A DNA stretch of 64,000 bases from the IMG/VR virus record IMGVR_UViG_3300027777_000001, positions 1 to 64,000 of that record; one strand, given 5' to 3'. Both the position numbers and the translations under genes were made by a program. Shown in pieces: positions 3,437-64,000 of the stretch. Within the stretch, counting starts at the first letter, position 1. Each line of letters begins with the position of its first letter. The DNA is from a virus. Under the pieces are notes generated by a model. The model did not search any database. It had not been told where the DNA came from and saw nothing but the letters and a program-made list of their open reading frames with translations.

Positions 3437-4861
3437 ATGGCTAACCCAATCACATGGCAGAACGTAGACACGGGTACAGGGGCAGCAACAGCCGCCTATG
3501 GTGCAGGACGGTTAATGGATTCAGCTACCACAGGTATTACAGGTGGCATGGATCAGATTAAAGGTGTTTATGACCAGTACCAAAAGGATCGCAAGGTTGA
3601 CAATACCGCAGCGTATGAAGCTGAGATTGCTAAGTACACCACCCCAGAGGCTTTGAAAGCCGCACAGGATAGTGGCGTATTGGCTAATCTAGGTAAGCAA
3701 TTTGGCTTACAGATGAATCAAGACGTACTGAAGAACGGTGTAAGGAATGCACAAACCAGTCTCCGTGGTGATGTCACTGCAGATAACGCATACACAGATA
3801 TGCTGGGTATCCGTAAAATTGAAAACCCTGTTGATACATTTGCCCGAGAAAGAATAGATGCTATTGATAATCAAAGAGTAAGAATTCGTGCAGCCGACGA
3901 TACAAGTGCAACGTCAGGATTAACACGGCAAGGGTTGCAAAATACGTTAACTGAATATGCATTGAATGCACCCTTACGTGCAATTACTAGAACAGGTCTA
4001 GAAGGTACAGCAGCTGGCGTAGTTCGAGATAATGCTTACGATTTAACGCCACAAGGTATAAAAGATAAAGCAACTAAACGTAGGGTAGCGGGCGGTATAG
4101 ACCAAGCTACAGAAGTAAAACAGAATGATGTTGTTCAGGATCGAGCTGGATTGAATTTTATGAATCAAGCCTATGCACAATTAGCAACTGATTTGCGGAG
4201 TGGTGTAGGTACCCCTGAAAGTATGAATTTAGCTGTATTGAAAGTTAAATCTGATTTAAGGGCTCAAGGTTTTTCGGATGCAAAAATTGAAGAGTTTCAC
4301 GCCGCCAATGCAGAAGGGCTCTATCCAACGACTCATTTTGCGGGAGACGCTGCTCGTCGCACCCTCGCGGCTGCTAAGGTAGTAGCACAGGATACTGTTG
4401 AAGAGCAAAAAAATCCTGTTTGGAAAGCATCGATTAATACTAAATCCAATACGGAACAAGCAGGTGATGTGCTTGCAGGATTCATGCCCAAACCTAAACC
4501 AATGGAAGGAATTGGTCAGAATGAAACTTCAGATGAGAGAAAGGGTCGCCATAATTACGAAGCTGCACAATCATTTATAACTGGTTTAATTGGTACAACG
4601 TACACTTTTGGTGGCAAAACAATGACTGTCACTTCTTACGATGTTCAAAATGCACTTGCAACCGGAGGCGCACACGATAAAGGATTATGGCAATTGTTTA
4701 CTAACCCGCTTGCCAATGAAGGTATTCAGGTTTATAAAAAAGATACTGAAGCGGCCCTTAAAAAGATAATGATGTCACCTGAACGAGTTAAGCAGCAAAC
4801 TTGGTATGACAGAAAGAATGAGGGTAATGTCCGAGCTATTACTGGGACTCCTAATAAATAA
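3437..4861 (+). CDS. Internal virion protein, N4 gp51 position
   Basis: 474 aa, no Cys, begins MANPITWQNV, immediately upstream of vRNAP. Confidence 0.55.
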   Translation: MANPITWQNVDTGTGAATAAYGAGRLMDSATTGITGGMDQIKGVYDQYQKDRKVDNTAAYEAEIAKYTTPEALKAAQDSGVLANLGKQFGLQMNQDVLKNGVRNAQTSLRGDVTADNAYTDMLGIRKIENPVDTFARERIDAIDNQRVRIRAADDTSATSGLTRQGLQNTLTEYALNAPLRAITRTGLEGTAAGVVRDNAYDLTPQGIKDKATKRRVAGGIDQATEVKQNDVVQDRAGLNFMNQAYAQLATDLRSGVGTPESMNLAVLKVKSDLRAQGFSDAKIEEFHAANAEGLYPTTHFAGDAARRTLAAAKVVAQDTVEEQKNPVWKASINTKSNTEQAGDVLAGFMPKPKPMEGIGQNETSDERKGRHNYEAAQSFITGLIGTTYTFGGKTMTVTSYDVQNALATGGAHDKGLWQLFTNPLANEGIQVYKKDTEAALKKIMMSPERVKQQTWYDRKNEGNVRAITGTPNK

Positions 4862-13900: not shown

Positions 13901-16900
13901 CTAAGGCTCTACCAAGCACCAACCCATCAACCGCAGGAAATACACATGCTAATTCAGATCGATTAGCCCATCTCAGCAGATTCGCTGCAATGGGTCTTGC
14001 CCATGAAGGGGTTAATAAGCTCCTGCAGGGCATGACAGGATCTGGGCTGACTACCACGGCTACCCCTGCACCAACGAGCTTTCTAGCCCGTCTGAAGGCC
14101 TTGTTTGATCAGATCTTGGCTTGGTTCAGTGACAAGCAGACTGGAATCAAACCGGGTGACAAACCTGATGCCAGGTTAGAGAAATTAGTTGATACCTTGG
14201 TTGGGATTGAAGCTAAGAAACGTGCTGCAGCCATGGCTCGACAAAATGCTCTGTTCACAGGTCTACAGAATGTGTCCAATAATGTTCTTAACGCGGCTAA
14301 CACGGGTATCAATAAAGTAGGGGCAGCCGCCGCAAGAAGCAACAATGGGGCAGTGAAAGGCGTAGGGTTTGTGATTAACGCGGTCTCTGGAGGTAGGGTT
14401 AACCAGATCATTAATAATGGCATGAACTACTACGCTACATTGAATGGTGGTAAGCCAGACCTCTTCACAGATACTGTGGCTTATGTGCGTGGGCCAACGT
14501 CTCAGATGGAGGAGTTGTTCCGTATGGGTAAGAAGCTAGAAGCGGATCGTCGAGCATTCATCGACAACACAGCTACGCTTCTCTTGGCTGCATATCGTAA
14601 TGGTGGGCAGGATCTGACACAGATCCAGAAGAAAGCCATTACTTCCTTGGTACGTTCTGATGCCCAGTCACTCTTAGCAGCAGGCTACACCATGGCTCAG
14701 TTAGCTGAGTTCTTGGGCAACGGGACACAACGCCAAGACGAGATTACGAAGCTTGAAGATAGTCTGAAATCCTTACATCCCCAGTTCTATAAACAGTTCT
14801 TGGGTCAATCCAAGCAACTTGCATTCATCTTGGCTAATGGAAAAGCCACGCATGAGAACTCTATGCTGAACGCTTTGAATATTGCACGGATGTACAACAC
14901 ACCCACAATGGGTCAGTTAACCGTAGCAGAAGAGGCTGCAGTCCAAGCCTTGGTAGATCCCTTGGTGTCTCTCTGGGCGATTGAGTATTCACCCACAGTG
15001 CTTCGTGAGACATCCAGAGATGTGTTGCTCGATGAGTCAGCACGCTCCAATGGTGAGAACGGGATTGCCGCAACCCTTGCCATGCACGCACACTTACTCA
15101 AAGATTCAAAAGATAAGCTCTTTGATGGCAGCGAGGTATTGCGTACCAAGGGCTATTTACCAGAGGTATATAACCCAAGAACAGACATCCAAGTAGCAGG
15201 TGATGTCGAGGGTCGGAACTTAATTGACAAGGGCTACTCAGTGGGGGGTGTTTTGCCCAAAGATCCTAATGACCCCGATCCTCAGACCGTAAAAAAATTG
15301 TATGTACGTGAGGACTCAGGGATGGTGGCTCATGTTACAGGGATGATTTCCTTGAAAGACATGAAAGCTAAAGGCTCTGCTCAGATTGGAAAAGAACGTA
15401 GGTTCTATAAACCTAAGGGAGATTGGAATGCCAGTGAAGTCGTAAGAGTCACTGGATCTCAAAGAAACGCCATTGCTTGGATGGCTCAAAATGGCGATAC
15501 ATTTGATCCACGAAACGTCACTGGGACGTTCATGATTCCTACACTAACAAGCGAAGGGGATATTTCTAACTATCGCTATGAAATGAGCCATGCCCGTAAG
15601 GATTCAATCCTCGAGCGAAACAATAACTTTGAACACGTACTTGGGGTATTTGCTGGCAACACATTCGATAAGATTACCTCTGCCCAACATAACGCTAAGG
15701 TTATTCAAGCCTTGCATGACCACTACTCAGTGGACTATGCAGGACGGTCTGTGTCATACGTAGAAGTAGGCCCTAATAGCCGAGACCCAGCCATGCGGGA
15801 AGTCTACCGCTTGCTTCCTGAGGCCACAAAGAAGGAGATAAGAAGAGTGTGGGGAACGGAAGCCATGCTGGTTAGAAACGACATGATGAATCTGACATTT
15901 GGGTATAGGAAATTTAGCCTGTCCGAGATGTTTGATAAAGACCCTTCTACAAGGAATGCTTATGAAGATCTGTTTGTCTCGATTGCTACCTTTGTCGTAG
16001 CAGGGTACGCTAGACTGCAACTTGGAATGGATCCAGCCCAAGCCATGCAGTATGCCAAGCGTACAGGGGTGATTGTTAAACGAGCCGAGGATGCGTGGAA
16101 GACCATCTCTGATGAAACCAAGAATGCGATTGTGGTTAAGACTGGAATCGTGATGATGGGTAATGTCTGGAGTAATGCCACGCTCTTAATGATGCACGAT
16201 ATCTCATTGGTGGATATTGCTAAGCACCATAAGACAGCATTTACCGCAGCCCGAGAGTATCAAGAGGTGAGCGAGGAGTTGTTTAAAGCTCAGACTCAAT
16301 TGGATACTAACTACAACGTGGGTAATAGGAAAGCTTTAGAACAACGGATCTTAGTCCTAAAAGACAAGATCGCCCGTAACCCAGTGACCGAACTTATGGA
16401 CTCTGGCTTGATGCCTACCATCGTGCAAGACGTTAACATTAAGGATGACACATACGCTTATGACTCTAACTTTGTGAAGAACATTAAGGCTAATGTTGCT
16501 TCCCTTAATCCAACAGTCTTAAACATCGGTAAGCAGCTCTACATGACTAAGGACACGCCACACTACAAGATGTTGGCTAACCTGACCCAGATGAGTGACT
16601 TCGTGGCTCGATACACTTTGTATCAACACTTGACCACAAAGAGCCAAGACCCCTTGAGCAAGAAAGAAGCTGCACGGGTATCTTCTGAATCCTTTGTGAA
16701 CTACGACATCCCGCTGCCTAAAGGTATCCAGTATCTAGATGACATCGGGATCTTGCCATTTACCAAGTACTTCTTATCGATGCAAAGAGTGTTGGCTTCC
16801 TTGGTTCGAGAACATCCCGTAAAGGTGCTGATGACCTTGATGGGCAATAACTATTTAAACTTAATGCCAACAGTGATGGATGGGTCAGCGTTTAGTCGCT

Positions 16901-16995
16901 TTGGGAATAACCCGTTTAGGTCAGGGCCATTACGATTCATTGGTGCGGTAGAACACATCCTACCCATCAAGTATGCGATGGGGTTATTCAGGTAA
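4960..16995 (+). CDS. Virion-encapsidated RNA polymerase (N4 gp50-like vRNAP)
   Basis: 4011 aa; single-subunit RNAP motifs ERDGKTNGP (A), RNMMKKPTQEVVYGS (B), NQHDAL (C); no Cys found on reading, as in N4 vRNAP. Confidence 0.95.
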   Translation: MATFDIDQYLADQHNASLEASKLAANIPKPVEPVNTVPEFPDNSIFGSSPTNIKDKLAEVYRASKQKVEQLATDIGNIKLAQNPETVTLTDQFKASLAGVQKDLNGSLTAPLDPDPQKNTLAYKNWVANGSPGFEYDPESTAAQFNNGVARVDSGIARSIGNIKAGLLAPGLVLADNATTEQEKAAYNRRAAGFEYGDGQRANPGDDALLNAPSSVNLSAITGVGDNPNYQLGTSGGSLKERATQIVPERKATILELLDHSRATSKQIDDIATSHDLGSLVDHAAEDRVTAAQKDWVPQNLKMRDSFSINRKSAASNFAEGNFKEALINAESALADGASVTGHYAANTVRDLFNHPDIIEAAVQDNSPQLALGLIPVVGATALGVLNAGYGAQMYAKGEQKYTKETGIPFAPQGERNVQAVASGAAAAAEFVGDLIPVGGITKAGQAISGLGKDAAAVAAKVSAEQAAKTAAEAGFVNRVKAGTLDTAKAMAGEFTTETFQSPLENIANREAYDPYGQALSSVMGAAGGAGMNGPSSVVTQLGKAAQAVQDKKAVAEQAKAAQQKEAIDFYQAAEKNDASIYTDPTSKTYDPVKAAGVWFTHSQQATTTPETKAENLAKVTDLQAQMQADIESVKGSVESSQPKAQAALLDQQAKLQASLSIATPAQTEQINQALGELQQKIDQPVLDTRGLKDAGLRATKMEKQLEQITAMRTRLDLEAGAQGSQDGINAQRASTEVPVAPVASTTNNQDGKSSYDPSGYMDTKEWQAIDAQHSPVEAQWIAMESGPESQAFYEKNVKDLTAQKDAIRDAWQKNDPANASVNQTVNQSANQSPLPASAKDIPLNPASRIGDLLDLDNQDHEGVFDAIKILAMVRKGHRRGMTADQLKNDTFIRTSLAGLTLRAKTDKTAQQGLDYFNKKFDDIVSQSDESAASNAIAKDLLGNTVPLKDLLQHIINENKDPELTKIAKQILKVAGDVPVSTQSERTEVGGLYDIINQTIEITESYLNNGGVADPDTAEIVLHEGGHAATIYALVKNPALRKQLYDLMEHVAKTNPEMLQEYGLTDTAEFLAEGFANPKFRAKLKEIAPSGINRGKFANAWAEFVEFIRKALGLPVSTRSALTELMELGNQAMRETGKAKNKKITIREFNDATAEEIAPIQQVVDPLIAIKNNVSDSNIKDLIDEAIKKASRQTVVAVAVVEALEKLRIISETAPETITLDSFDKAVDSMVFKLSSPRKEGQGNSTEADTQTTEKTLEEQNASVPEAPTNKDSKKETNKESNAGGLDVLNQPVSPKGTAYNLRNVITDYFTQNAGKDTNGTQRPLVKVRDFLTSLLAEPTLAEQFVKGKELSERQQEAVAFFAKTAMAWLPTIQEALFKRADPTYYADNDPLQFLYTEVLDANGKPTGKFDADENYKTAIAYAAFSTIQDMAGNGELNSQATINKMLGRLADHEVTPEEWRALGRIGTLEDLLANAAGQVAYEALGLQVKNMETWNNLPAQIKTSMGAHVMKLLIEQGYIERHLLDATDISAMRGYSSTGGSDTTTNYTGLENLSYFTLAREGQPTDLQRPLTGELQQIVDSVKGTQGILDKVFSIESATRWPSLEPLEPHQVNAKNSDQLVPDTLGTIIDKKLKEVNKLRQDVWHVLGGFTRDFTLEMMGKEDSTQAQKGRRLSVEAKNQSLEREFDQYRELGTILLTTGTKDLGQPYFLDYSVWKQHRVGIATNGFNPNSSKAQRQQSYQPDWETKIDRNDSAQMDNFYLGVAEGFGIATDNVPNAVSLVTIKDRFAQADVVEAVEILRQRMVSVDPEPFTDAEQQKIVSLVKKGKENLHSLNSLIALAHFSEAVKTNSDTFTVQIPAERDGKTNGPMLANAFFGVGSSPAELFKTLNRGGFFEVGNPDTQFNIWKGKGNLDLYEKGTGNLLRTLQWLITEKKVFGFIKDTVQVFTKSLTDPKTGGVNSVGRNMMKKPTQEVVYGSSSKTTVDNMAQVFIESVYARIEEVAKDDLSHMTLAKLIKELNSLLYGTDTKFNSNDTAQTILDKDFSSADIAAMKDKFIKTLGKAVKETVKSDFHAFTFRTQIFTATAGLTFSIYKAVYDTARKDYIKELTELGEFDVNPAFERRGKNGKMSQISARQTHDLNAAQEKVLKERVLAVYPIVHSLFSKESNQLEAGLFISKTERKLSKDPNYQVEVQFGTQIKDLGRSRVNMAAMQTNQVGPGVAMLPNLIQASDSYISHSVQAAMNALNQHDALITGLGKTKETAQLLNAATWKLLLNYSPATEMYEAFVRNILGMESMLAKKEVSKDVLALFAASIVEQTYRFNGPDTDVPIDPHEFLGIHLALMKNMSFRADSMKFSTLGLTASIDQYTFEGGNFAVDEKLREAALAKKAELVSEIDPETQAAVDSLEQRLQTAITAATIAANKKIAQTLNIELDPEGYGVTEQQLEDLRTESREDASINDTVADHLTNAQAFALLSHAVKDKSLGETVVEMLKEVMTKLRESKGAMNLVTALKVLQPANRAEIAQLLMDRASKIPANLWGIQGTPDIKSEAHWVDFFEKRGNVKGEQLVRALKDRLIEQGGPSNVKDFNLEMLNRISKLISPTLTIRYVTPFTAPSQVIQQAKDNARAWYIATTDGVDTIYILSTDFKHSGLTTETLLHEILHSAVARTIKSEQDARKRNPTRKTPLLAIIDDLELLRYLAKKHIDADPELAAKYGPAVSSIDELIAWGMTNTAFQQEVLNKMQGVPSRTNNNAITGLKAMINALVAILFKKTEGREAEILGSGLSILITNVSDLFTEAENKQSQTINETLNRSQTHTAPDPAFYTTAEIYDSLAGVSPAPLAFDSQLRDLLSGIVNKLHGTAGVLHESLMDRQALSAQDVYLKALATGQAPFASATIASGFQFSQQEGFVIEQVEATVRAAIDRNENTQSFAYKGLDALYNEAKANLAPKDFHQGDWNTATQVEKDTAQELYDFLFVMAKALPSTNPSTAGNTHANSDRLAHLSRFAAMGLAHEGVNKLLQGMTGSGLTTTATPAPTSFLARLKALFDQILAWFSDKQTGIKPGDKPDARLEKLVDTLVGIEAKKRAAAMARQNALFTGLQNVSNNVLNAANTGINKVGAAAARSNNGAVKGVGFVINAVSGGRVNQIINNGMNYYATLNGGKPDLFTDTVAYVRGPTSQMEELFRMGKKLEADRRAFIDNTATLLLAAYRNGGQDLTQIQKKAITSLVRSDAQSLLAAGYTMAQLAEFLGNGTQRQDEITKLEDSLKSLHPQFYKQFLGQSKQLAFILANGKATHENSMLNALNIARMYNTPTMGQLTVAEEAAVQALVDPLVSLWAIEYSPTVLRETSRDVLLDESARSNGENGIAATLAMHAHLLKDSKDKLFDGSEVLRTKGYLPEVYNPRTDIQVAGDVEGRNLIDKGYSVGGVLPKDPNDPDPQTVKKLYVREDSGMVAHVTGMISLKDMKAKGSAQIGKERRFYKPKGDWNASEVVRVTGSQRNAIAWMAQNGDTFDPRNVTGTFMIPTLTSEGDISNYRYEMSHARKDSILERNNNFEHVLGVFAGNTFDKITSAQHNAKVIQALHDHYSVDYAGRSVSYVEVGPNSRDPAMREVYRLLPEATKKEIRRVWGTEAMLVRNDMMNLTFGYRKFSLSEMFDKDPSTRNAYEDLFVSIATFVVAGYARLQLGMDPAQAMQYAKRTGVIVKRAEDAWKTISDETKNAIVVKTGIVMMGNVWSNATLLMMHDISLVDIAKHHKTAFTAAREYQEVSEELFKAQTQLDTNYNVGNRKALEQRILVLKDKIARNPVTELMDSGLMPTIVQDVNIKDDTYAYDSNFVKNIKANVASLNPTVLNIGKQLYMTKDTPHYKMLANLTQMSDFVARYTLYQHLTTKSQDPLSKKEAARVSSESFVNYDIPLPKGIQYLDDIGILPFTKYFLSMQRVLASLVREHPVKVLMTLMGNNYLNLMPTVMDGSAFSRFGNNPFRSGPLRFIGAVEHILPIKYAMGLFR

Positions 16996-55663: not shown

Positions 55664-57738
55664 TTATGACAAGGCATAGTTCCCTAGCCTGATGTGTACG
55701 CCTAGGTCTTTACTCTTCTTCATCCACTTTCCCTTGTAGCCAGTGATCTGGGTAAGAACATCGGACAAGATCTCACTCTCGGCTAGATCAGCCATCACGT
55801 AGATGTACTGTTGACGAAGATGGTTCAGGTTATTAGGGTGACACTTGAACTCATCATGGATCGTCACTAGAGGGAAGGGTGCATACATCTGCATCTGGTC
55901 GATGAGAGTAGACAACTTCTCTAAGTGTGCTGTGGATAACTGATCCACAGTCTTGGTTGTTAGATGAGGCAGGATCACCACATCAGCTAACTTGCTACGG
56001 TTGAACTGCTCGATGTAATACATTGTTTTACCTGACAAGGCAGGTGAGCTGAAGTTTGGATACATTCTTCGGACATCTAATGTGTCCTTGATTAGAGCCT
56101 GAGCATTGCTGACAACTACTGGATCGTAGTTACAACGCCTGTGCATAGCCCGTAATACGTAACCATCGATGCTATGTATACAATTCGCCGCCAGTGATAA
56201 TCCCTTCTTAGTCCCTACATTGTCATAGTAGGTATAGGTGAAGGTGGCATGATCTAACTCATCAACCTCGATGCGTGCATCGATCTTGTCCATGACTTTG
56301 ACCTTGGCATCATACCCATCGGGTAATTGCCAAGCGTGCTCCAAAGCCCATGGTTGCCATGATGCAAGCAGGTCTTGGAGAAGCTCCCAAGGCCCGGGTG
56401 CCACGATCTGAGCTGCCTGATAGAAGGCATCCAGTTCAGGACTATCCTCGCCAAATATGGCTTTGGGAGTCTTTTTACTACCGTAGAAAGCAATGTGTTC
56501 AGGATAGTTCGTTAAGCTATCCCCGCTTTATTCAAGCTGCTATGTATTCCTACATAGATCAGACTATATCTTCACCCATCACTGGGGTTCTGCGCTTCCA
56601 CCCACTTGGGTGTACTCCCTTACGGGATAGTCGTTGCACCTTTTACAACAGCTTTACACATCTGGATAAATAGTTCTTCATCCAAATCGCCTTTTGCTCT
56701 ATTAACAGCCCATGCTACCCATTGAACATTACCCTGTGTGTACCCTAATTTAGGTTGCAGTTTGTCAATTGACAATCCAGCAGGGTGTTCTTTTTCAACG
56801 AATAGTGATTGGTTGGTGTATTTACACTTCCCATTTTGCTGTTTCCAGAGGTCAAGCATATATTCCATAGTGATATTAAATGGGCGTTCGTTTCGTTTGT
56901 TGTTGGTTTTTGCTGAAGATATCCTCTGGCAAATAGCAGAAACTAACTTACGTTCGTCCCCTTTATATGGTGCAAATCGGCCTGTGCCATCGTAGCCTTT
57001 ATGTTTAGCTCGCCATTCTCTAGCTTCTTTTGCTAGACACACACGACATTCTGGTTTGAAATCAGCAATGACGTTGGCGTTGAATTGTGAGCTGTTTTTA
57101 CTTTTGGCGGGGCCGTATGCATTTAAAGGTTTAATTTCATTACAGATCCGACAGGTTTTCATCGTATTCCTATAGGTAAAGTCATAGAAGTATTTTACGA
57201 TTATTTCTACGGAATAGCTATCATAACTTGGCTCAGGATTGTCCTTATTTTTCAATAGTGGGATGTTCCCTGAGTTCACAGAATTGCGTATTTCTAGTTG
57301 CCTAGAAAGTGACCCCTTTTATTCTAAGGTCATTAGACACTTCTTGGCATCTGCTCGAGGGATTGTGATGTTGCTCCCCAAGATGGCATTCATCGTATCT
57401 GTGGTCAGGGTGTATGCGTCTGCTCGGACATTGGGGTTCGTTAAGCCCGTAGACGCAGCACCCGCAGGGCATCCTGTGATAGCAGCCATGATCTGAATGC
57501 CTGAACATACAGCATCAAATCCAACCAAGTGTCCAGAGGGTTCCCCCCTCTGTGCTGCTCGGATAGCTTGGCAAGCCTTCATGTACAAAGGCTTCTTATC
57601 AGCCTGATCTACTAGGCTCTCTAAGATATCCAAGTTAGCCTCGGCCCATGTAATACGTTCCTCGAATAGAAGTTTGTCGATACCGAATTGGTTTGCGACA
57701 TCAATGAGTAAGTACTGCCAGCCTGTGAAGGTTTGCAT
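55664..57738 (-). CDS. RNA polymerase II large subunit (N4 gp16-like), two exons: 57738-57327 and 56490-55664
   Basis: Exon 1 has FDAVCSGIQ (motif A); the join gives RADAKKCLMTSFYGS (motif B); exon 2 has IHSIDG and IHDEF (motif C); 412+827 nt = 413 codons in frame. Confidence 0.9.
56491..57326 (-). mobile_element. Group I intron (836 nt) in the RNAP II gene
   Basis: P1 UGACCU/GGGUCA with U.G at the 5' splice site; P GAACUCAGGGAA, Q AAUCCUGAGCCAAG, R GCAACGACUA, S AAGAUAUAGUC; terminal G. Confidence 0.9.
56620..57162 (-). CDS. Intron-encoded homing endonuclease (HNH/His-Me-finger-like)
   Basis: CRIC..CRVC N-terminus; SIDK..P.LGY..GNVQW....N.AK; lies between Q and R elements. Confidence 0.8.
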   Translation of the reverse strand: MKTCRICNEIKPLNAYGPAKSKNSSQFNANVIADFKPECRVCLAKEAREWRAKHKGYDGTGRFAPYKGDERKLVSAICQRISSAKTNNKRNERPFNITMEYMLDLWKQQNGKCKYTNQSLFVEKEHPAGLSIDKLQPKLGYTQGNVQWVAWAVNRAKGDLDEELFIQMCKAVVKGATTIP

Positions 57739-57748
57739 GATTAGACCT

Positions 57749-57967
57749 TTATGGGAATAGAATTGCCATGGCACGGATGTGCTTGGGTATGTTGTCGTGA
57801 TTGGGTATCCACTGCCAATCGTATCCGCCGATACCTTTATCCATACAGAGGTACCAATTTTCTCCAAATTTCTTATATGTTCCTAAAATCCGTTCGGTAC
57901 CCCAATCATCCCCATTGGGGAAGACTAGAACCTCACCGTTGGGACTGAAGTGATACTTTGATTTCAT
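57749..57967 (-). CDS. Hypothetical protein between RNAP II subunit genes
   Basis: ATGA-coupled 72-aa ORF. Confidence 0.55.
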   Translation of the reverse strand: MKSKYHFSPNGEVLVFPNGDDWGTERILGTYKKFGENWYLCMDKGIGGYDWQWIPNHDNIPKHIRAMAILFP

Positions 57968-58872
57968 GTTGGAACTCCTGTAACAACCTCTTCATTGAAG
58001 AGCTCGATGCTTGCCTTCTTGAAGGGTGTGCCTTGGGTGTTGATGTGATAGCCGCAGGAATAGATACGGCCTCTCTTGTCAACCTTGTGGGTTAACCAGA
58101 ACTTATTACCTTGGTTCACTAAGAGACTGTAGAAGCCATAAGACTGAGTCTTAAAGTCTTGCCATAGACTGATCTGCTCTTGGTTCTTGGCTACGAACGT
58201 AGGCTCCTCTTCAACACTAGATAAGAACTCAGTGTTGATCTTTAGAGGAACTTGGTTCATTAGATTCAGAACATCTAAGCAGATGTCTCCACCATGGTGA
58301 TTACCTTGACCCAGTATCAATGAATCATTGTGGGTCAAGTAACCTGAGCTGTAGTTGCTAGTGAGCTCCAGTGGACTACACACCATGGGTGGTAAGTAGC
58401 TACTGTTACGCACAAAGTCTAGAGTCTGCTTGGTTAAGAAGATCCTAGACACCACTGTTAAGCTCGCTGTCCTACCTACCTTACCAATGTCAAAGGCATC
58501 GGTTAAGCATAGTATGGCTAAGATCTCAGCGACTGTTGTGACTGCTTGTACTCGGTCACTGAACTTCAATCGACTCGCCATCTGTGCTGCAACAGAAGAC
58601 AACATCTCTTCTTTCTGGAAGTAACAGATACCTACGAAGATGTCTGTCACCAAGGTCTCGAAGTCTAGCCCTTCAAGCTGGGCTATCCTTCTATTCTTGG
58701 ATTCATAGTAGGTACCTGCTGCATACTTCTCCAGAAGTTCTACACCTTCTTGTATCTTGGCTTGAGTATCAGGGTTGTCCCTGATGTCACCAGAGATATA
58801 ACCGTCAATGAACTTACGGCTATATCTTTCCTCATTGGCTTCTTGCATGAAGATCTGCTTCAAAGTATCCAT
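57964..58872 (-). CDS. RNA polymerase II small subunit (N4 gp15-like)
   Basis: PPMV..P, SGYLT, DKRGRIY (DxxGR) motifs. Confidence 0.9.
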   Translation of the reverse strand: MDTLKQIFMQEANEERYSRKFIDGYISGDIRDNPDTQAKIQEGVELLEKYAAGTYYESKNRRIAQLEGLDFETLVTDIFVGICYFQKEEMLSSVAAQMASRLKFSDRVQAVTTVAEILAILCLTDAFDIGKVGRTASLTVVSRIFLTKQTLDFVRNSSYLPPMVCSPLELTSNYSSGYLTHNDSLILGQGNHHGGDICLDVLNLMNQVPLKINTEFLSSVEEEPTFVAKNQEQISLWQDFKTQSYGFYSLLVNQGNKFWLTHKVDKRGRIYSCGYHINTQGTPFKKASIELFNEEVVTGVPT

Positions 58873-58885
58873 GCCTACTCCAAGA

Positions 58886-59251
58886 TTAGTAATGAACTAC
58901 GTGAACGAACTTACCGAGCTTCTTCATGGTTTGAATCATGTGGGCTGTGCCTCTTGATTTTTGATCCCAAAAGGCTACGAGACCATCTGCTGCTTTACTC
59001 ATGGCATCGTTACGGATGAACCCTGCACGCTTGCCATAGGTATCCCAATCTGCAGGGAACTTAATCAAAGGTACGTGGTATTCCTCTGCGAACAGGACAC
59101 CCAATCTGTCTGCACCTCTTGCCATGCCACTGACAATGCTCACTGAGACTTCGGCTAAAGCGTGATCCCCTAAGCCTAAGAGGACTAGTTGCATAGTCGT
59201 ATAGTCCTCAAAGTCTCTACCGCCCGCTACAATCAATTTAAAGTCATTCAT
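58886..59251 (-). CDS. SLOG/YspA-like protein (DUF2493-type)
   Basis: IVAGGRDF, SGMARGAD, PADW, AG.IRN..M, FWD..S.GT. Confidence 0.8.
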   Translation of the reverse strand: MNDFKLIVAGGRDFEDYTTMQLVLLGLGDHALAEVSVSIVSGMARGADRLGVLFAEEYHVPLIKFPADWDTYGKRAGFIRNDAMSKAADGLVAFWDQKSRGTAHMIQTMKKLGKFVHVVHY

Positions 59252-59292
59252 GGTACGCACCCCTTAACTGTGAATATGGAAGGCAGGAAGGC

Positions 59293-59311
59293 CCTATACA
59301 GAGGCGTAGCC
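59293..59311 (-). promoter_or_regulatory. Putative vRNAP hairpin promoter
   Basis: CCTATACAGA-GGC-GTA-GCC on the template (+) strand. Confidence 0.65.
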
Positions 59312-59336
59312 CCCCATGCATCACCCGCAGCGAGGG

Positions 59337-59369
59337 AAAAGAACCCAGCCCTCCCGAAGGAAGACTGGA
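59337..59369 (-). terminator. Intrinsic terminator
   Basis: UUCG hairpin plus U-rich tail on the minus strand. Confidence 0.7.
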
Positions 59370-59375
59370 TTAGGT

Positions 59376-59669
59376 TTACTTTGAGCCAAGACGATTTGAT
59401 TCTTTGAGTCGGTAATAATCGTTGGTGGCAATGACTAGCTCACGTTGCAAGCTATCGACCTCTGTATTAATTATCGTGAACATCTCTTCTATGCCCAGCT
59501 GTTTGATTCTCTCAAGGCCGTAACCTAAAGTGGTTAAGATACGATGCGTACCTGTCTCAACTCGGTCATTTACCTTCCCGCATAATTCATCTACTACTTC
59601 TAGCTGGGCTTTTAAATTTGCAATAACAGCTAATGCTGTTTTGTGGTCATCGATTGCGATGTTGTTCAT
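59376..59669 (-). CDS. Early hypothetical protein
   Basis: Start MNNIAI after ATCCAAAGGAATC leader. Confidence 0.6.
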   Translation of the reverse strand: MNNIAIDDHKTALAVIANLKAQLEVVDELCGKVNDRVETGTHRILTTLGYGLERIKQLGIEEMFTIINTEVDSLQRELVIATNDYYRLKESNRLGSK

Positions 59670-59721
59670 GTTGATTCCTTTGGATTGAGCCCAATCATCT
59701 CGAAAGATGACTGGATTAGGG

Positions 59722-59934
59722 TTAAGGCGTGATGTTTCCTGCAAGTTTGAGCTCTAGCACTTCAAGACGAATCTGGTTCGCTCGGTCTTTGATGTGTGCA
59801 ACACAAGCAGGGGTGAAATCGCAAACACCAATTACCATTTCATTCTCGATCCCGAGGATGTACTCGTTGATGTATCGAATGTGTAATTTCATTGCTGAGA
59901 GATGTTCGTTCATCTGTTCGGTACGTGCGCTCAT
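59722..59934 (-). CDS. Early hypothetical protein
   Basis: Same leader; 70 aa. Confidence 0.6.
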   Translation of the reverse strand: MSARTEQMNEHLSAMKLHIRYINEYILGIENEMVIGVCDFTPACVAHIKDRANQIRLEVLELKLAGNITP

Positions 59935-59955
59935 AATGATTCCTTTGGATGTGAG

Positions 59956-60285
59956 TTACCAAATACCTCTAGTTATTAGCTTTGCAAATTCATGGTTTTC
60001 TTTTTCTAATTCTTCAGCAGTGACATCGTTTGGTGCTTGGCGACGGTAGCTTGCGTACATAGCTGCACCATCTCGTTCTTGTTGCAAGTTATCGACTTGT
60101 TCAAGGATCAAGATGAGTTTGCCCAAGGTAGTCGAATGCTCTCTGGTTTCGGCTGTGAAGTTGAGTTTGATCATGATGCGATCAATAGCTTCTTCGGTAT
60201 AGTCTCGAACAAGTGCTTCTGCTCGGTCTATCTTGGCTTGAAGACTGGCGTTAATTCGAGCTTGTTGTTCTTCGGTCAGTTTCAT
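59956..60285 (-). CDS. Early hypothetical coiled-coil protein
   Basis: Same leader; 109 aa. Confidence 0.6.
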   Translation of the reverse strand: MKLTEEQQARINASLQAKIDRAEALVRDYTEEAIDRIMIKLNFTAETREHSTTLGKLILILEQVDNLQQERDGAAMYASYRRQAPNDVTAEELEKENHEFAKLITRGIW

Positions 60286-60318
60286 GATGGTTCCTTTGGA
60301 TTGTGTAATCGGGGATAT

Positions 60319-60349
60319 AAAAAAACCTACAACCCCGAAGGGAAGTAGG
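60319..60349 (-). terminator. Intrinsic terminator
   Basis: UUCG hairpin plus U7. Confidence 0.75.
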
Positions 60350-60367
60350 CTTATCAGTGCTGAGGCA

Positions 60368-60886
60368 TTAAGCCAGACTGAATTTAGGACGGGCTGCTTT
60401 CTCTCCGGGGCGATAATCCCAGGTGAGGTTTGTTAAGAACTCAACAATGTTCTTTGGATCAGCTTCGAGATAGTGCATCAGACCTGCGTGCTGAGTGTTA
60501 TCAGCCTTCAGTTCGATAAAGCCAAGCTTCGCTGTGCCGCCGCCCTCTGCTGGAAGGTGAAAGTTCAGATAACCCGAAGTGTTGGCTTCTGTAGCAACTG
60601 CTGGTACTGGAGAAATCATCTTGATCTGTGATTTCTGGTTGCGGCGGGGCGATTGGTAATCAACCGTCACCTTAGCTGCGAAGATAGCCAAATTAGCTGG
60701 GTTCGCTTCAAGGTATTCGCGCAACATCTTCTGGTTCTCAACAGCGTCTTTGAGACCGATAAAGCCTAACTTGTACAAACTATCTTCTTGTGCAGGAAGA
60801 TAGGAATTCAGAAAACCACTTGCTTTCCAGTCTTGGTCAGAAGATGACGATGAACGTGGAGCTTTGTTGGCATAGGGAGAAGCCAT
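60368..60886 (-). CDS. N4 gp2-like ssDNA-binding RNAP II activator with an internally duplicated domain
   Basis: WKASGFLN.YLP..KLG.I.LK recalled as gp2-family-like; motif present twice; early-region position. Confidence 0.6.
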   Translation of the reverse strand: MASPYANKAPRSSSSSDQDWKASGFLNSYLPAQEDSLYKLGFIGLKDAVENQKMLREYLEANPANLAIFAAKVTVDYQSPRRNQKSQIKMISPVPAVATEANTSGYLNFHLPAEGGGTAKLGFIELKADNTQHAGLMHYLEADPKNIVEFLTNLTWDYRPGEKAARPKFSLA

Positions 60887-60928
60887 GATGATTCCAATAT
60901 GAGAGATATGACAGGCACAGGATTTGTG

Positions 60929-60947
60929 CTGTAACAGAGGCGTAGCC
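60929..60947 (-). promoter_or_regulatory. Putative vRNAP hairpin promoter
   Basis: CTGTAACAGA-GGC-GTA-GCC. Confidence 0.7.
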
Positions 60948-61561
60948 TTGGTGGAGAACACGCAGACGTACCGAACCGAAGCAAGGCTCGTGGCTATGCG
61001 GGCAGGAAGGTACTTGTTTGGATTATGTATAACGAAGCTTAAGTGCGGCGATGAGATAGATAACGATGATTTTGAGTAAATCGTTTCTTTGTGAAAACTT
61101 CTAACATTCCTTGGATTAGGTAGAAGACAAAGGCCTTGTCATTCTTACCTTTACAGAGTGTACGGAGTACACCTCAGTGTATTAAGTAGTACTTAGTATT
61201 AAGTAGTATATTTTAAACATTACTGTTTGGTAATGAAATGTAATCCTTAACCTTAAATGATGTATGTAAGTCCTTAAAACCTTACGTGTATTACCGAACA
61301 TATGATTATTGAGTCTATCTATATCCATACCTTCGGCCCTCTTATATAAGAGAACTAAACCTATAGGTAAATAAGGAGTTATATATAACTACTTGTAGGT
61401 ATCTATATATGTATAGATAAGTAGTATTAAGTATGTATATAAGTCTTATAAGACTATATATAAGATCGCAGGGTAGGGTCAGGGGTTTGGAACCGATGTC
61501 TGCAGTCTAGCCGATGGATTATTCAAACTATCTAATAGCCTATTTATATTAGGGGTATTAG

Positions 61562-61589
61562 AAAAGAAAGACATACCCCGAAGGGTATG
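61562..61589 (-). terminator. Intrinsic terminator
   Basis: Minus strand CATACCC-TTCG-GGGTATG plus U-rich tail. Confidence 0.75.
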
Positions 61590-61594
61590 CATTG

Positions 61595-61759
61595 TTAGTA
61601 CGGTGTTTGGCTTGAGAGATACCAGGTGTAAAGATGGTGTTGGTGATCCTTTTCCAAGAACCTACTCTCCTCAGTATCTTTAGCAATTATTGCTTCCCAA
61701 CGAGCATCTTGTTGACGCTCATACTCATACTCATCGAAGTCTTCTTTAGTAGTGACCAT
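61595..61759 (-). CDS. Early small acidic protein (not in ORF track)
   Basis: Hand translation MVTTKEDFDEYEYERQQ..., 54 aa, AAGGA RBS. Confidence 0.6.
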   Translation of the reverse strand: MVTTKEDFDEYEYERQQDARWEAIIAKDTEESRFLEKDHQHHLYTWYLSSQTPY

Positions 61760-61761
61760 GG

Positions 61762-61923
61762 TTATTCCTTAATTGGTTTAGAAGGCCTTAAACGGAGGCA
61801 CAAGGCGATTGCAGCTCCAAGGGTAGTAAGTAGTCCAACCCAGTAAAAGAACTGTGAGAGGGCTACTGCAAGGGCTAGGATGAGCACTAGTGTCAGTGCT
61901 CCAAGAAGGAGATAGGATTTCAT
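61762..61923 (-). CDS. Early small membrane protein
   Basis: ATGA-coupled start MKSYLL; two TM segments. Confidence 0.55.
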   Translation of the reverse strand: MKSYLLLGALTLVLILALAVALSQFFYWVGLLTTLGAAIALCLRLRPSKPIKE

Positions 61924-62105
61924 AAGGAATCCATCCAAGCATTTGCTGTAACCCAAGCTGCAAGTTCTGCATCTTGCTTGGCAAGGACACTGAGGTAATA
62001 AGCCTCAGCCTCTGCTGCATCAGCATCTGTACGATGCCAGAAGTAATGCTCCTCTCTGGAGAGGTCTTCAGCTTTAACTGTGTCGATCTCTGTGATCTGG
62101 TTCAT
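61920..62105 (-). CDS. Early hypothetical protein
   Basis: 61 aa, GAGGA RBS. Confidence 0.6.
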   Translation of the reverse strand: MNQITEIDTVKAEDLSREEHYFWHRTDADAAEAEAYYLSVLAKQDAELAAWVTANAWMDSL

Positions 62106-62108
62106 GGC

Positions 62109-62267
62109 TTAATCCTCAAGCATAGCTGTTGAGAACATGAGAGAAGTCTCACGCTCTTGACCCGATACTTCTAATTCGTAGAGATAGTTCTCGAGACTGA
62201 CGAGATCCGCACGGTCTTCAAACTCACCAGACCAGGCTTCTTGTTCGTGGTTGTATTGGCTAGTCAT
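62109..62267 (-). CDS. Early small acidic protein
   Basis: Start MTSQY after GGAG. Confidence 0.6.
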   Translation of the reverse strand: MTSQYNHEQEAWSGEFEDRADLVSLENYLYELEVSGQERETSLMFSTAMLED

Positions 62268-62298
62268 GGTGCTACTCCAGAGAAGTAGACAAAATTGT

Positions 62299-62317
62299 CT
62301 ATGACATACGCGTAGCG
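62299..62317 (-). promoter_or_regulatory. Putative vRNAP hairpin promoter (compensatory stem variant)
   Basis: CTATGACATA-CGC-GTA-GCG. Confidence 0.65.
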
Positions 62318-62328
62318 AACAGCAAGGG

Positions 62329-62482
62329 AAAAAAAACACCCAACCATCCCGAAGGATGATTGAGTGTTAGATGTCTGCTATCCCTAGCACATGAGTTGGA
62401 TAAGCCTCATGCTCGCTGTCTGCCATGCTACCGGGCAGACTCAGTTGGAATAGACGCAAATACTTCTTTCTTTTGCTATTCC
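62329..62482 (-). ncRNA. Candidate structured small RNA (about 155 nt) ending in a terminator at 62329-62368
   Basis: Own promoter motif and terminator, four stem-loops, no ORF with an RBS. Confidence 0.5.
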
Positions 62483-62499
62483 GTTACAGAGGCGTAGCC
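62481..62499 (-). promoter_or_regulatory. Putative vRNAP hairpin promoter
   Basis: CCGTTACAGA-GGC-GTA-GCC(TCT), 6-bp stem. Confidence 0.7.
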
Positions 62500-62523
62500 T
62501 CTTGGATATGTACAGGTGCATAT

Positions 62524-62554
62524 AAAAAAAGGGGATAACCCATAAGGGTTATCC
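62524..62554 (-). terminator. Intrinsic terminator
   Basis: GGATAACCC/GGGTTATCC stem plus U7. Confidence 0.8.
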
Positions 62555-62563
62555 ACTCTTGTG

Positions 62564-62758
62564 TTACCAATTCTTCATACGTTCTTCAAGACGAGCTAAA
62601 CGAAGCTCAAACTCTTTAGCGTAATGAGCCTCAGCTTCAGCACGACAAGCCTTTGTGTACTGACGATCTTTAATAAACTTAGGCATACTTACCTTAGGCA
62701 AGTTAAACTTAGGTAAAGTAATAGACTTAAACGACATCGTAGGGATAGTGATATTCAT
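62564..62758 (-). CDS. Early small basic protein, paralogue of 63061-63279
   Basis: Start MNITIP after GGAG; x-L/M-P-K repeats. Confidence 0.65.
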   Translation of the reverse strand: MNITIPTMSFKSITLPKFNLPKVSMPKFIKDRQYTKACRAEAEAHYAKEFELRLARLEERMKNW

Positions 62759-62800
62759 GTGATGCTCCGAAAGGGGAAAGAGATGTCGGGACGACATCTT

Positions 62801-62819
62801 CTATAACTGAGGCGTAGCC
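62801..62819 (-). promoter_or_regulatory. Putative vRNAP hairpin promoter
   Basis: CTATAACTGA-GGC-GTA-GCC. Confidence 0.7.
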
Positions 62820-62830
62820 AATAGCTTAGG

Positions 62831-62870
62831 AAAAAATACACACACCATCCCCTAAGAGGGATGATGTGTT
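62831..62870 (-). terminator. Intrinsic terminator
   Basis: CATCCC..GGGATG stem with extension plus U6. Confidence 0.7.
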
Positions 62871-62973
62871 TACATCTATGGTGTTGCTGGGTTGGTTTGA
62901 GAAACCGTATACATATCTGCCATATCTCATGCACAAAACAGATAAGTGAAGAGCCTCGTAATGCATTTGCTTT

Positions 62974-62992
62974 CCATTACATAGGCGTAGCC
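62974..62992 (-). promoter_or_regulatory. Putative vRNAP hairpin promoter
   Basis: CCATTACATA-GGC-GTA-GCC(TAT), 6-bp stem. Confidence 0.7.
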
Positions 62993-63013
62993 TATTAGAT
63001 GTATACGGGTATT

Positions 63014-63058
63014 AAAAAAGAAACCAACACACACCCAGTTAGGATATGTGCTGGTATC
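63014..63058 (-). terminator. Intrinsic terminator
   Basis: Long imperfect G.U-containing stem plus U6 on the minus strand, right after the ORF stop. Confidence 0.6.
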
Positions 63059-63060
63059 GA

Positions 63061-63279
63061 TTAACGAGATAACATTGACTTCAGTTCTTTGACTCGAGCT
63101 TGAGCTGATGGAGTAGACATGAACTCTTTGTACATAGACTCAGTAGTAGGAGTAACAACAGTAGCCTTAACAGTGCGAGCCTTAGTGGTACGAGTGAAGC
63201 AGCTAGGCATAGCAAGCTTAGGCAGTGTGATGTTGAATGACTTCAACGAGACTGATACAACTGGGAGTGTGATCTTCAT
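63061..63279 (-). CDS. First early gene, small basic protein
   Basis: Start MKITLP after GGAG. Confidence 0.65.
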   Translation of the reverse strand: MKITLPVVSVSLKSFNITLPKLAMPSCFTRTTKARTVKATVVTPTTESMYKEFMSTPSAQARVKELKSMLSR

Positions 63280-63317
63280 GGTGTATTGCTCCAATGATTA
63301 AGTAGATGAACATTCAT

Positions 63318-63336
63318 CCATCACATTGGCGTAGCC
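63318..63336 (-). promoter_or_regulatory. Putative vRNAP hairpin promoter
   Basis: CCATCACATT-GGC-GTA-GCC. Confidence 0.7.
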
Positions 63337-63621
63337 ATGTAGTTAACTGAACTCAACTCGCTCTGAGTTAAGGAGGCAGGAGTCGAGCTGTCCTCTCCTC
63401 CCCCAGTGGACTGGGGTAAATCCAAATAAGGAAAGGTAGGGGGGGTACTTTCCTTTTTTCGTCTTTGCTGCCTCAGCCCTACACCCGTACCCATTTTATA
63501 AATTTCCTCAAAACCCTAATTAATTTTCTCTAAAAAATTATTATAAAAATAATAGAGTATTAGTTTGGATTATGGCTTTACCATATAATGTCTTTATATA
63601 ATCCTACTGGATATAAACATT

Positions 63622-64000
63622 ATGTCGGTATTAACTGTTGAACAGTTTAAACAGGTACTTCCTGATAAAGTTAAGAAGTCTGTTAACCAAGAACTGATTG
63701 ATCAGGTTAATAACACCTTGTCTGATCCAGAGATGTTCGAGGCGTATAGGGATAATCTATTGTCCTATACCCGTGTCATGTCAGATGGCAGGTTTAAGAT
63801 TACTAGTTATATTGAAGCCATTAAGTATGTGAGCCATAAGTTAATGGGAGCCACGAATATCGAGGCTTATATTAAAACCTTTACAGATAAATATAATAGG
63901 TTCTTGGCTCAGGGTGTTACACCTAAAGATATTGCTAGTTATGTCACTGCTTATAATAAATCCAAGTTAGTGAACCTAATCTTTGAACAAACATTAATCC
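63622..64000 (+). CDS. Terminase small subunit, N4 gp69-like (truncated by the window end; not in ORF track)
   Basis: Hand translation MSVLTVEQFKQVLPDK...RDNLLSYT.V..GRFK...Y..AIKYVSHKLMG...SYVTAYNKSKLVN, open to 64000. Confidence 0.75.
   Translation, partial: MSVLTVEQFKQVLPDKVKKSVNQELIDQVNNTLSDPEMFEAYRDNLLSYTRVMSDGRFKITSYIEAIKYVSHKLMGATNIEAYIKTFTDKYNRFLAQGVTPKDIASYVTAYNKSKLVNLIFEQTLI

Follow-up and report, generated by a model that had tools for sequence, protein, structure and literature searches.

What do seven near-identical hairpins with a GTA loop do at 59.3-63.3 kb of an uncultured virus genome, upstream of its RNAPII genes, and which enzyme would read them? The window analysed here comprises 64,000 nucleotides (positions 1 to 64,000) of the 74,079-bp record IMGVR_UViG_3300027777_000001, with the early and RNAPII genes on the minus strand. 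The 9-mer GGCGTAGCC occurs six times and its variant CGCGTAGCG once, all on the plus strand and starting at 59303, 60939, 62309, 62491, 62811, 62984 and 63328. The general form SGC-GTA-GCS was found seven times on this strand, within 59303-63336, and nowhere else on either strand of the record, compared with a chance expectation of 0.13-0.54 (0/100 shuffles reach seven). The plus strand is the template, as the RBS-bearing ORFs, an RNAPII subunit gene, a Drc-like gene and a YspA-like gene are all read leftward. The preliminary description, which had reported seven such motifs on the template strand, one CGC/GCG variant and the stem extensions AGA/TCT and ATA/TAT, is therefore accurate in these respects. 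The candidate promoters are as follows, together with their counterparts in L008, the closest relative, whose RNAPII small subunit is 93% identical:

59293-59311, plus strand: P1, hairpin GGC-GTA-GCC at 59303-59311, predicted +1 at template C 59293; leftward transcription predicted into the YspA-like gene and the RNAPII genes; 20 nt after the terminator at 59332-59371; L008 ortholog with a GTGA loop
60929-60947, plus strand: P2, hairpin AGGC-GTA-GCCT, predicted +1 at C 60929, predicted to drive the tandem Drc-like gene; L008 ortholog with a GTGA loop
62299-62317, plus strand: P3, variant hairpin CGC-GTA-GCG, predicted +1 at C 62299, predicted to drive four small ORFs (62267 down to 61595); 7 nt after the terminator at 62325-62368
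62481-62499, plus strand: P4, hairpin AGAGGC-GTA-GCCTCT (6 bp), predicted +1 at C 62481, heading a short unit without a convincing ORF; 23 nt after the terminator at 62523-62554; paralogue of P6
62801-62819, plus strand: P5, hairpin GGC-GTA-GCC, predicted +1 at C 62801, predicted to drive a 65-aa ORF (62564-62761); 10 nt after the terminator at 62830-62869; paralogue of P7
62974-62992, plus strand: P6, hairpin ATAGGC-GTA-GCCTAT (6 bp), predicted +1 at C 62974, heading a short unit without a convincing ORF; 20 nt after the terminator at 63013-63055
63318-63336, plus strand: P7, the first promoter, hairpin TGGC-GTA-GCCA, predicted +1 at C 63318, predicted to drive a 73-aa ORF (63061-63282); flank CATCC as in N4 P2; conserved in L008

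Core and flank of the sites follow the arrangement CC-R-TTACA-N-A-GGC-GTA-GCC. With up to three mismatches allowed, the extended 19-nt consensus recovers the seven sites only, each with zero to two mismatches, and hence is approximate rather than exact. All seven form a hairpin with a three-nucleotide G-N-A loop and a C-G closing pair (core GGC-GTA-GCC or CGC-GTA-GCG), contain the heptamer GCGTAGC, have T at the loop centre and possess a template C exactly 14 nt from it. The perfect stems measure 3, 4, 3, 6, 3, 6 and 4 bp from P1 to P7. An Rfam search of 59000-63700 gave no match, and scanning viral contigs for the exact 14-mer ACAGAGGCGTAGCC yielded only lone, evidently chance matches in unrelated contigs. 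A second hairpin family, with GGA loops, is also present in the genome, and the polymerase may therefore read more hairpins than these seven.

Pairing of the stems is supported by a compensatory change, CGC/GCG in P3 against GGC-GTA-GCC at the same site in L008, as well as by covariation. A set of 16 GTA-loop sites, drawn from five phages, gives a covariation score of 0.479 versus 0.10 for shuffles (0/500 shuffles reach 0.479), and every slid control scored below the true register. The inner three pairs of this set are paired by site selection and only the outer pairs are unbiased; the latter pair in 12/16, 11/16 and 3/16 sequences. Nearest-neighbour folding of the 39-nt sites placed the three with 3-bp stems no better than shuffles (z = +0.45 to -0.55). 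We do not hold this against the hairpin, because the measured stability of GNA mini-hairpins is not accounted for by conventional thermodynamic models (review PMC13037366). According to the same review, d(GCGNAGC) oligonucleotides, studied by Hirao and co-workers, fold for all four N into two G-C pairs plus a sheared G:A pair, with a Tm of 70 °C for N = T (PMC13037366). GCGTAGC is found in all our sites and the GTGA variants of L008 fit the related GCGNNAGC form, but the oligonucleotide work is physical chemistry, whereas in the phage the hairpin would have to extrude from duplex DNA within a cell.

Judged by its gene content, the genome is that of an uncultured N4-like (Schitoviridae) phage with a virion RNA polymerase (vRNAP), split RNAPII subunits and a Drc-like gene:

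4960-16995, plus strand: vRNAP, 4011 aa (phrog_2206 'virion RNA polymerase', E = 0)
57964-58872, minus strand: RNAPII small subunit, N4 gp15-like, downstream of P1
60368-60889, minus strand: Drc-like early gene, tandem-duplicated, 173 aa with two repeats (phrog_6271)

The vRNAP matches the C-terminal domain of N4 vRNAP in the PDB (E = 4e-41), while a PDB phmmer search with its polymerase-domain part gave no N4 match. Aligned with LUZ7 gp73 over about 2760 columns, the vRNAP shows 30.6% identity, and other vRNAPs (P0001-P0006) are 65-68% identical to it over the polymerase region. The Drc-like gene resembles LUZ7 gp14 (BLASTP, E = 1e-9), and no PHROGs family was found for nine small early ORFs. 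Megablast with the 4.6-kb region as query returned no match among 50,697 phage records, and there is no close cultured relative among them. Searching genome contigs for the RNAPII subunit revealed no relative, hence no prophage copies, and the same search of metagenomes added only distant or short loci.

The best explanation, to which we assign a probability of roughly 85%, is that the seven elements are early promoters of this phage, read by the injected 4011-aa vRNAP. Such a role had been put forward in the preliminary description and is well supported by the vRNAP homologue, by the position of the sites on the template strand of the early region and by their match in core and flank to the early promoter Pe3 of Pseudomonas phages. 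GTA-loop early promoters were predicted for LIT1, PEV2 and LUZ7 in 2010 by Ceyssens et al. (PMC3715699, Suppl. Table S2), Pe3 with a template core GGC-GTA-GCC and a TTACA flank, and Pe2 with a GTA loop too (PMC3715699). Putzeys et al. (2022) mapped the early starts of LUZ7 by ONT-cappable-seq and primer extension (PMC9163698). Nine early start sites were reported, the starts being G at 13-14 nt from the hairpin centre; the two strongest are in tandem, 33 nt apart, and Pe3 is counted among the confirmed promoters (PMC9163698). Our hairpin scan, which recovered the three known N4 promoters, located GAA and GTA hairpins in LUZ7 at 86, 797, 3669 and 3701. The last two precede the Drc gene at a spacing of 32 nt, which fits the reported tandem starts (PMC9163698).

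The window sites align in Pe3-type core and flank with LUZ7 3701, YH6 5062 and L012 6021, and P4 and P6 match Pe3 almost base for base. Shared with LUZ7 and LIT1 are the template-strand hairpin, the identical core GGC-GTA-GCC and the flank CC-R-TTACA-N-A, and transcription begins 13-14 nt away from the loop centre (a prediction here, from the template C at 14 nt). There are also more than three early promoters in LUZ7, and one copy directly precedes the gene for the Drc-like RNAPII cofactor: in LUZ7 and YH6 the GGC-GTA-GCC hairpin lies ahead of a Drc-like gene annotated 'toxin', and P2 likewise precedes the Drc-like gene here. The systems differ in that LUZ7 and LIT1 mix GAA and GTA loops on varied stems, whereas the window has one near-invariant core (7/7) on stems down to 3 bp, a much tighter packing (seven promoters and seven terminators in 4 kb) and a vRNAP 600 aa longer than that of LUZ7.

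In N4, three early promoters, P1-P3, are read by the vRNAP gp50, and a purine is required at the loop centre (-11 A/G), where it is contacted by R119 and W129 (review PMC4496689). Both phages have a C-GNA-G triloop hairpin on the early-region template strand, with G, C and G at the equivalents of N4 -10, -9 and -8 (invariant in 7/7 sites here, the CGC variant included), an injected polymerase and initiation opposite a template C (predicted here). However, the purine rule of N4 is broken by T in 7/7 sites, the predicted start lies 14 rather than 11 nt from the loop centre, the stems measure 3-6 instead of 5-7 bp, and there are seven promoters instead of three. In a 34-sequence MAFFT alignment N4 W129 falls opposite a conserved F (motif LQF) and R119 opposite T, at about 20% identity, where the mapping is too uncertain for loop-base recognition. 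The suggestion that the central T marks a different specificity consequently holds against N4, but not as a new specificity, given that GTA-loop promoters were already listed in 2010 (PMC3715699). We infer both the polymerase that reads the sites and the exact start base from these comparisons.

The heterodimeric RNAPII with its Drc-like cofactor might read the hairpins in place of the injected vRNAP. LUZ7 middle promoters are likewise GC-rich hairpins with 3-4-nt loops, located about 15 nt upstream of the start (PMC9163698), and shape alone does not identify the enzyme. Nevertheless, the genes for RNAPII and the Drc-like protein are themselves preceded by P1 and P2, and hence another enzyme must read these promoters before RNAPII is available. 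Moreover, the sequence matches Pe3, a confirmed early promoter in LUZ7, whereas LUZ7 middle promoters have stems of at least 6 bp (PMC9163698), and hairpins of that kind in the window carry GGA loops and occur mainly outside the early region. We therefore regard RNAPII as an improbable reader.

The layout of the region bears on the remaining alternatives. Terminator-like hairpins were located as follows:

63013-63055, minus strand: intrinsic terminator, end of the P7 unit (terminator scan)
62830-62869, minus strand: intrinsic terminator, end of the P6 short unit (terminator scan)
62523-62554, minus strand: intrinsic terminator, end of the P5 unit (terminator scan)
62325-62368, minus strand: intrinsic terminator, end of the P4 short unit (terminator scan)
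61561-61590, minus strand: intrinsic terminator, end of the P3 operon (terminator scan; conserved in L008)
60319-60350, minus strand: terminator-like hairpin and T-run after the Drc-like gene (read from sequence)
59332-59371, minus strand: intrinsic terminator ahead of P1 (terminator scan; conserved in L008)

The hairpin at 60319-60350 was left unscored by the scan owing to an internal stem mismatch, and is conserved in L008, where a GTGA-loop promoter comes next. These hairpins are putative terminators, and those with T-runs precede five of the seven sites (59303, 62309, 62491, 62811 and 62984), as first described. Between the end of the T-tail and the 9-mer we count 7-23 nt. Two stretches, P7-gene-terminator-P6-short unit-terminator and P5-gene-terminator-P4-short unit-terminator, are diverged tandem duplicates in which the promoter blocks are the best-conserved segments, while the surroundings of P1, P2 and P3 are unrelated.

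It is quite unlikely that the 9-mer is instead a duplex site for a regulator, for instance a lysogeny or immunity repressor, or that it acts within read-through RNA as a hairpin for processing or stability. The phage encodes a tyrosine integrase, no repressor was identified in it, the core is near-palindromic, and read-through RNA would carry a GGC-UAC-GCC hairpin. On the other hand, all seven copies point the same way, their conserved flank is asymmetric and ends with the invariant C at 14 nt, and five follow strong terminators, so that most RNA would not contain them. Both the CGC/GCG change and the GTA-to-GTGA changes in L008 preserve the mini-hairpin and not a fixed duplex sequence, and the identical element is a mapped promoter in the strictly lytic LUZ7 (PMC9163698). 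Still less credible are passive leftovers of cassette duplication without a function of their own, since, even though four of the seven copies could stem from one duplication (the P7/P6 and P5/P4 units), the promoter blocks are the best-preserved part of the duplicated units, P1, P2 and P3 lie elsewhere in unrelated surroundings, and the motif is kept in L008, LUZ7, YH6 and L012.

If the elements are vRNAP promoters, GCGTAGC on the template strand would fold into a very stable mini-hairpin when the DNA is negatively supercoiled or single-stranded, with two or more G-C pairs, a sheared G:A pair and T at the tip. The polymerase would bind this hairpin together with the conserved flank A-C-A-K-A. 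Using GTP as the first nucleotide, it would initiate at the invariant template C that lies 14 nt from the loop centre and then move leftward. Most units appear to end at a terminator, with the next promoter 7-23 nt further on, so that expression of the first 4 kb would be split into consecutive units, each with its own dose. Among them would be two short, probably non-coding units and the gene for the Drc-like cofactor, and at the end would come the RNAPII genes, which would drive the next stage.

A promoter-gene-terminator array that exchanges by recombination had also been proposed. The layout is real, and cassette turnover is supported by the internal tandem duplication and by a mosaic comparison with L008, which has five sites, three of them with a GTGA tetraloop, and a single cassette in place of the four in the window; to locate recombination at the promoters themselves would be a further step of interpretation. 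The window uses GTA only, L008 uses GTA and GTGA, and a 60% relative has T-N-T loops with no G:A pair. This pattern raises the tentative idea, which we think more doubtful than probable, that hairpin-loop identity is a fast-evolving specificity code among uncultured relatives, with the tight 7-23 nt spacing allowing a few injected polymerases to re-initiate unit by unit on separately dosed cassettes, two early non-coding RNAs among them.

On the sequence evidence these promoters do not reveal a new mechanism; the central T sets them apart from N4 but is not new, and a GTA-loop promoter is an expected feature. They do provide a clean, predicted annotation of promoters, terminators and start sites for the early region of an N4-like phage that is uncultured and carries an integrase. 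The GTA-loop promoter of LUZ7 and LIT1, initiation region included, would thereby extend well beyond Pseudomonas phages, to a vRNAP only 30.6% identical to that of LUZ7. How a vRNAP reads the loop tip has so far been answered structurally only for the -11 purine of N4, and the GTGA and T-N-T variants of the relatives, together with GTA, would form a natural panel of templates for this question.

The motif SGC-GTA-GCS is found seven times in the window between 59303 and 63336 (P1 to P7, with 9-mers starting at 59303, 60939, 62309, 62491, 62811, 62984 and 63328), always on the + strand; no further copies occur in the rest of the 74-kb genome, and about 0.5 would be expected by chance. A 19-nt pattern covering the flank as well, with up to three mismatches tolerated, retrieves these seven sites and no others. 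The + strand is their template, because the genes in question read leftward, namely the early ORFs, the Drc-like gene (Drc is a cofactor of RNAPII, the second phage polymerase), the YspA-like gene and the genes for RNAPII. This confirms the seven template-strand copies reported in the preliminary description; its CGC/GCG variant (62309) and its AGA/TCT and ATA/TAT stem extensions are likewise present. Perfect stems measure 3, 4, 3, 6, 3, 6 and 4 bp from P1 to P7. A terminator-like hairpin with a T-run precedes five of the seven sites, as had been claimed, at a distance of 7-23 nt, and an additional terminator (60319-60350) is visible in the sequence but unscored by the terminator scan. We regard the seven sites as early promoters of the virion RNA polymerase (vRNAP), with a probability of roughly 85%. 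The hairpin-promoter reading is supported by the match to the Pe3 early promoters of LIT1, PEV2 and LUZ7, by an invariant C at 14 nt and by the evidence for pairing.

The source of the window is an N4-like (Schitoviridae) phage, whose full record comprises 74,079 bp with terminal repeats, bases 1-64000 being covered here. Its vRNAP ORF matches the PHROG 'virion RNA polymerase' (E = 0) as well as the C-terminal domain of N4 gp50 (PDB), and shares 30.6% identity with LUZ7 gp73 over an alignment of ~2760 columns. Its polymerase domain is placed at roughly residues 1350-2750, and vRNAPs from other contigs are 40-68% identical to it in this region. No close phage relative was recovered by Megablast, and the nearest cultured relatives of the RNAPII small subunit, namely Pectobacterium CB1-like phages, Pseudomonas Litunavirus and Klebsiella and Kosakonia phages, are only ~49% identical.

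4960-16995: vRNAP ORF, 4011 aa
40147-41364, - strand: tyrosine integrase with Arm DNA-binding domain (Pfam PF12167 and PF00589)
55664-56404, - strand: N4 gp16-like RNAPII subunit
56620-57279, - strand: HNH / endonuclease VII-like ORF, separating two pieces of the RNAPII large subunit
57964-58872, - strand: N4 gp15-like RNAPII subunit

With an integrase inside an N4-like genome, the phage may represent a temperate schitovirus; the RNAPII query retrieved no prophage relative from genome contigs.

The window sites align without gaps to the early promoters Pe2 and Pe3. On the template strand, Pe3 of LIT1, PEV2 and LUZ7 reads CC-A-TTACA-C-A-GGC-GTA-GCC-TG, and the Pe2 loop is likewise GTA (Ceyssens et al. 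2010, PMC3715699, Suppl. Table S2); P4 and P6 are near-identical to Pe3 from the start-region CC through the core. Nine early start sites have been mapped in LUZ7, most with a hairpin of at least 4 bp in the stem and a conserved 3-nt loop, and with the start, a G, located 13-14 nt downstream of the hairpin centre (Putzeys et al. 2022, PMC9163698). This spacing fits the window sites, each of which has a template C at 14 nt from its loop centre; the predicted starts are at 59293, 60929, 62299, 62481, 62801, 62974 and 63318 (- strand). The two strongest LUZ7 sites stand in tandem, 33 nt apart, ahead of Drc (PMC9163698). Our triloop scan of LUZ7 returned four template-strand hairpins, one with a GAA loop at 86 and three with GTA loops at 797, 3669 and 3701. 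Those at 3669 and 3701 are separated by 32 nt and immediately precede gp14, taken here to be the Drc gene. P2 precedes the Drc-like gene of the window, the same position that Pe3 holds in LUZ7 and YH6.

Applied to N4, the scan yielded exactly the three promoters already known there (loops GAA, GGA and GGA). N4 vRNAP recognises -11 A/G, -10G, -8G and +1C, with R119 and W129 contacting the -11 base, and D901 and R904 contacting -9C/-10G and -8G (PMC4496689). The window sites invariably carry the equivalents of -10G, -9C and -8G, whereas the loop tip is T and the start C lies 14 nt from the tip instead of 11 nt. The proposed vRNAP of different specificity (central T) therefore holds against N4 but is not supported as a novelty, since the central T is common to LIT1, PEV2 and LUZ7. 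In an alignment of 34 vRNAPs, W129 falls opposite a conserved F and R119 opposite a T; at ~20% identity, this is no more than a lead on loop-base recognition.

Four lines of evidence support hairpin formation at the window sites. Firstly, P3 carries CGC/GCG, in contrast to GGC/GCC at its ortholog in L008, an uncultured relative with a 93% identical RNAPII small subunit, so that a double change is seen at one orthologous site. Secondly, in a set of 16 sites with a GTA loop, taken from the window, L008, LUZ7, YH6 and L012 (a further locus with the motif), four of the six stem pairs have changes on both sides, and the covariation score is 0.479 compared with 0.10 in shuffles (0/500 reach 0.479) and lower values in every slid control; the inner three pairs are paired through the selection rule, leaving only the outer pairs unbiased, and these are paired in 12/16, 11/16 and 3/16 sequences. 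Thirdly, GGC-GTGA-GCC is found in L008 at the orthologs of P1 and P2 and at one additional site (6341, 6778 and 7566, - strand of the locus), and two GGC-GTA-GCC copies are present as well. The GTGA loops keep the G...A mini-loop at a changed length, which argues for shape over sequence, and one polymerase seems to accept both tri- and tetraloops in L008. Finally, GCGTAGC is contained in all seven window sites. According to a review (PMC13037366), the mini-hairpin is formed only by G-N-A triloops, with Tm values of 76 °C (N = A), 73 °C (G), 71 °C (C) and 70 °C (T), and this stability explains how 3-bp stems can suffice and why nearest-neighbour folding underrates the sites.

Several other elements are also observed. 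A strand-specific GGA-loop family (loop centres 20063, 23665, 27298, 29162, 55635 and 61165, every candidate on the + strand) has GC-rich stems of 5-6 bp, for instance GTGTAC-GGA-GTACAC and TGGTAC-GGA-GTACCA, and is mostly located at gene junctions of the leftward replication and middle genes. The copy at 61165 is kept in L008, and in LUZ7, YH6 and Horatius GGA-loop hairpins with 6-7-bp stems occur downstream of the gene for the RNAPII small subunit. The window hairpins agree with what has been published on the middle promoters of LUZ7 and probably represent additional promoters for a phage polymerase. A perfect 8-bp hairpin, AGATGTCG-GGA-CGACATCT (62782-62800, +), lies downstream of the predicted P5 start (62801) and ahead of the start codon (62761), and would fall in the 5' UTR of the predicted transcript. 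In L009, another uncultured relative, four template-strand hairpins (~6394, 6790, 7485 and 7927, - strand of the locus) possess GC-rich stems of 5-6 bp, T-N-T loops (TCT, TTT, TTT and TAT) and a common 5' flank, TCCAG-Y-M-C. All four have an ORF downstream and three have a terminator ~65-130 nt upstream; lacking the G:A mini-loop, this promoter-like class is further from N4 than the GTA sites. A G-run element (at least seven G, then TACTT, then CC) is present in the window (63438-63454) and in L009 (6327-6344), in both cases ~50-120 nt upstream of the first promoter, and may lie near a physical genome end or packaging site.

Along the direction of transcription, the early region is arranged as follows.

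Unit 1: P7, 73-aa gene, terminator
Unit 2: P6, short unit, terminator
Unit 3: P5, 65-aa gene, terminator
Unit 4: P4, short unit, terminator
Unit 5: P3, four small ORFs, terminator
Stretch 6: 550-bp AT-rich gap between the P3 operon and P2
Unit 7: P2, tandem Drc-like gene, terminator
Stretch 8: three ORFs without their own GTA promoter, then terminator
Unit 9: P1, YspA-like gene, then RNAPII genes

Units 1-2, which extend from P7 through the terminator behind P6, and units 3-4, from P5 through the terminator behind P4, are tandem duplicates that have diverged; the promoters are their best-kept parts. The two short units (62325-62481 and 62830-62974, - strand) span ~110-150 nt from promoter to terminator and are mutually diverged paralogues; they contain no convincing ORF and no Rfam match, and are candidate early non-coding RNAs. 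The Drc-like gene (60368-60889, - strand) consists of two Drc-like repeats fused in tandem; these are 45% identical to each other (E = 3e-14) and each resemble LUZ7 gp14, which is a single 99-aa unit. The non-coding gap (61000-61560), ~85% conserved in L008, contains palindromes and iteron-like repeats (two copies of GTATTAAGTAGTA at a spacing of 17 nt, and related copies ~235 nt away), and looks like a replication origin or regulatory region.

The array was also suggested to be exchangeable by recombination. In L008 the place of the window's four cassettes is taken by just one, whose 48-aa gene is unrelated; homology breaks off at the first start codon and picks up at the terminator-P3 junction. 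In L008 the Drc terminator is also followed by a promoter that the window lacks at this place, and the promoter-gene-terminator layout recurs in L009 (60% identical in the RNAPII small subunit). Cassettes have therefore been gained and lost between conserved junctions; the layout is confirmed and cassette turnover is supported, while for recombination at the promoters themselves we can only infer that it occurs.
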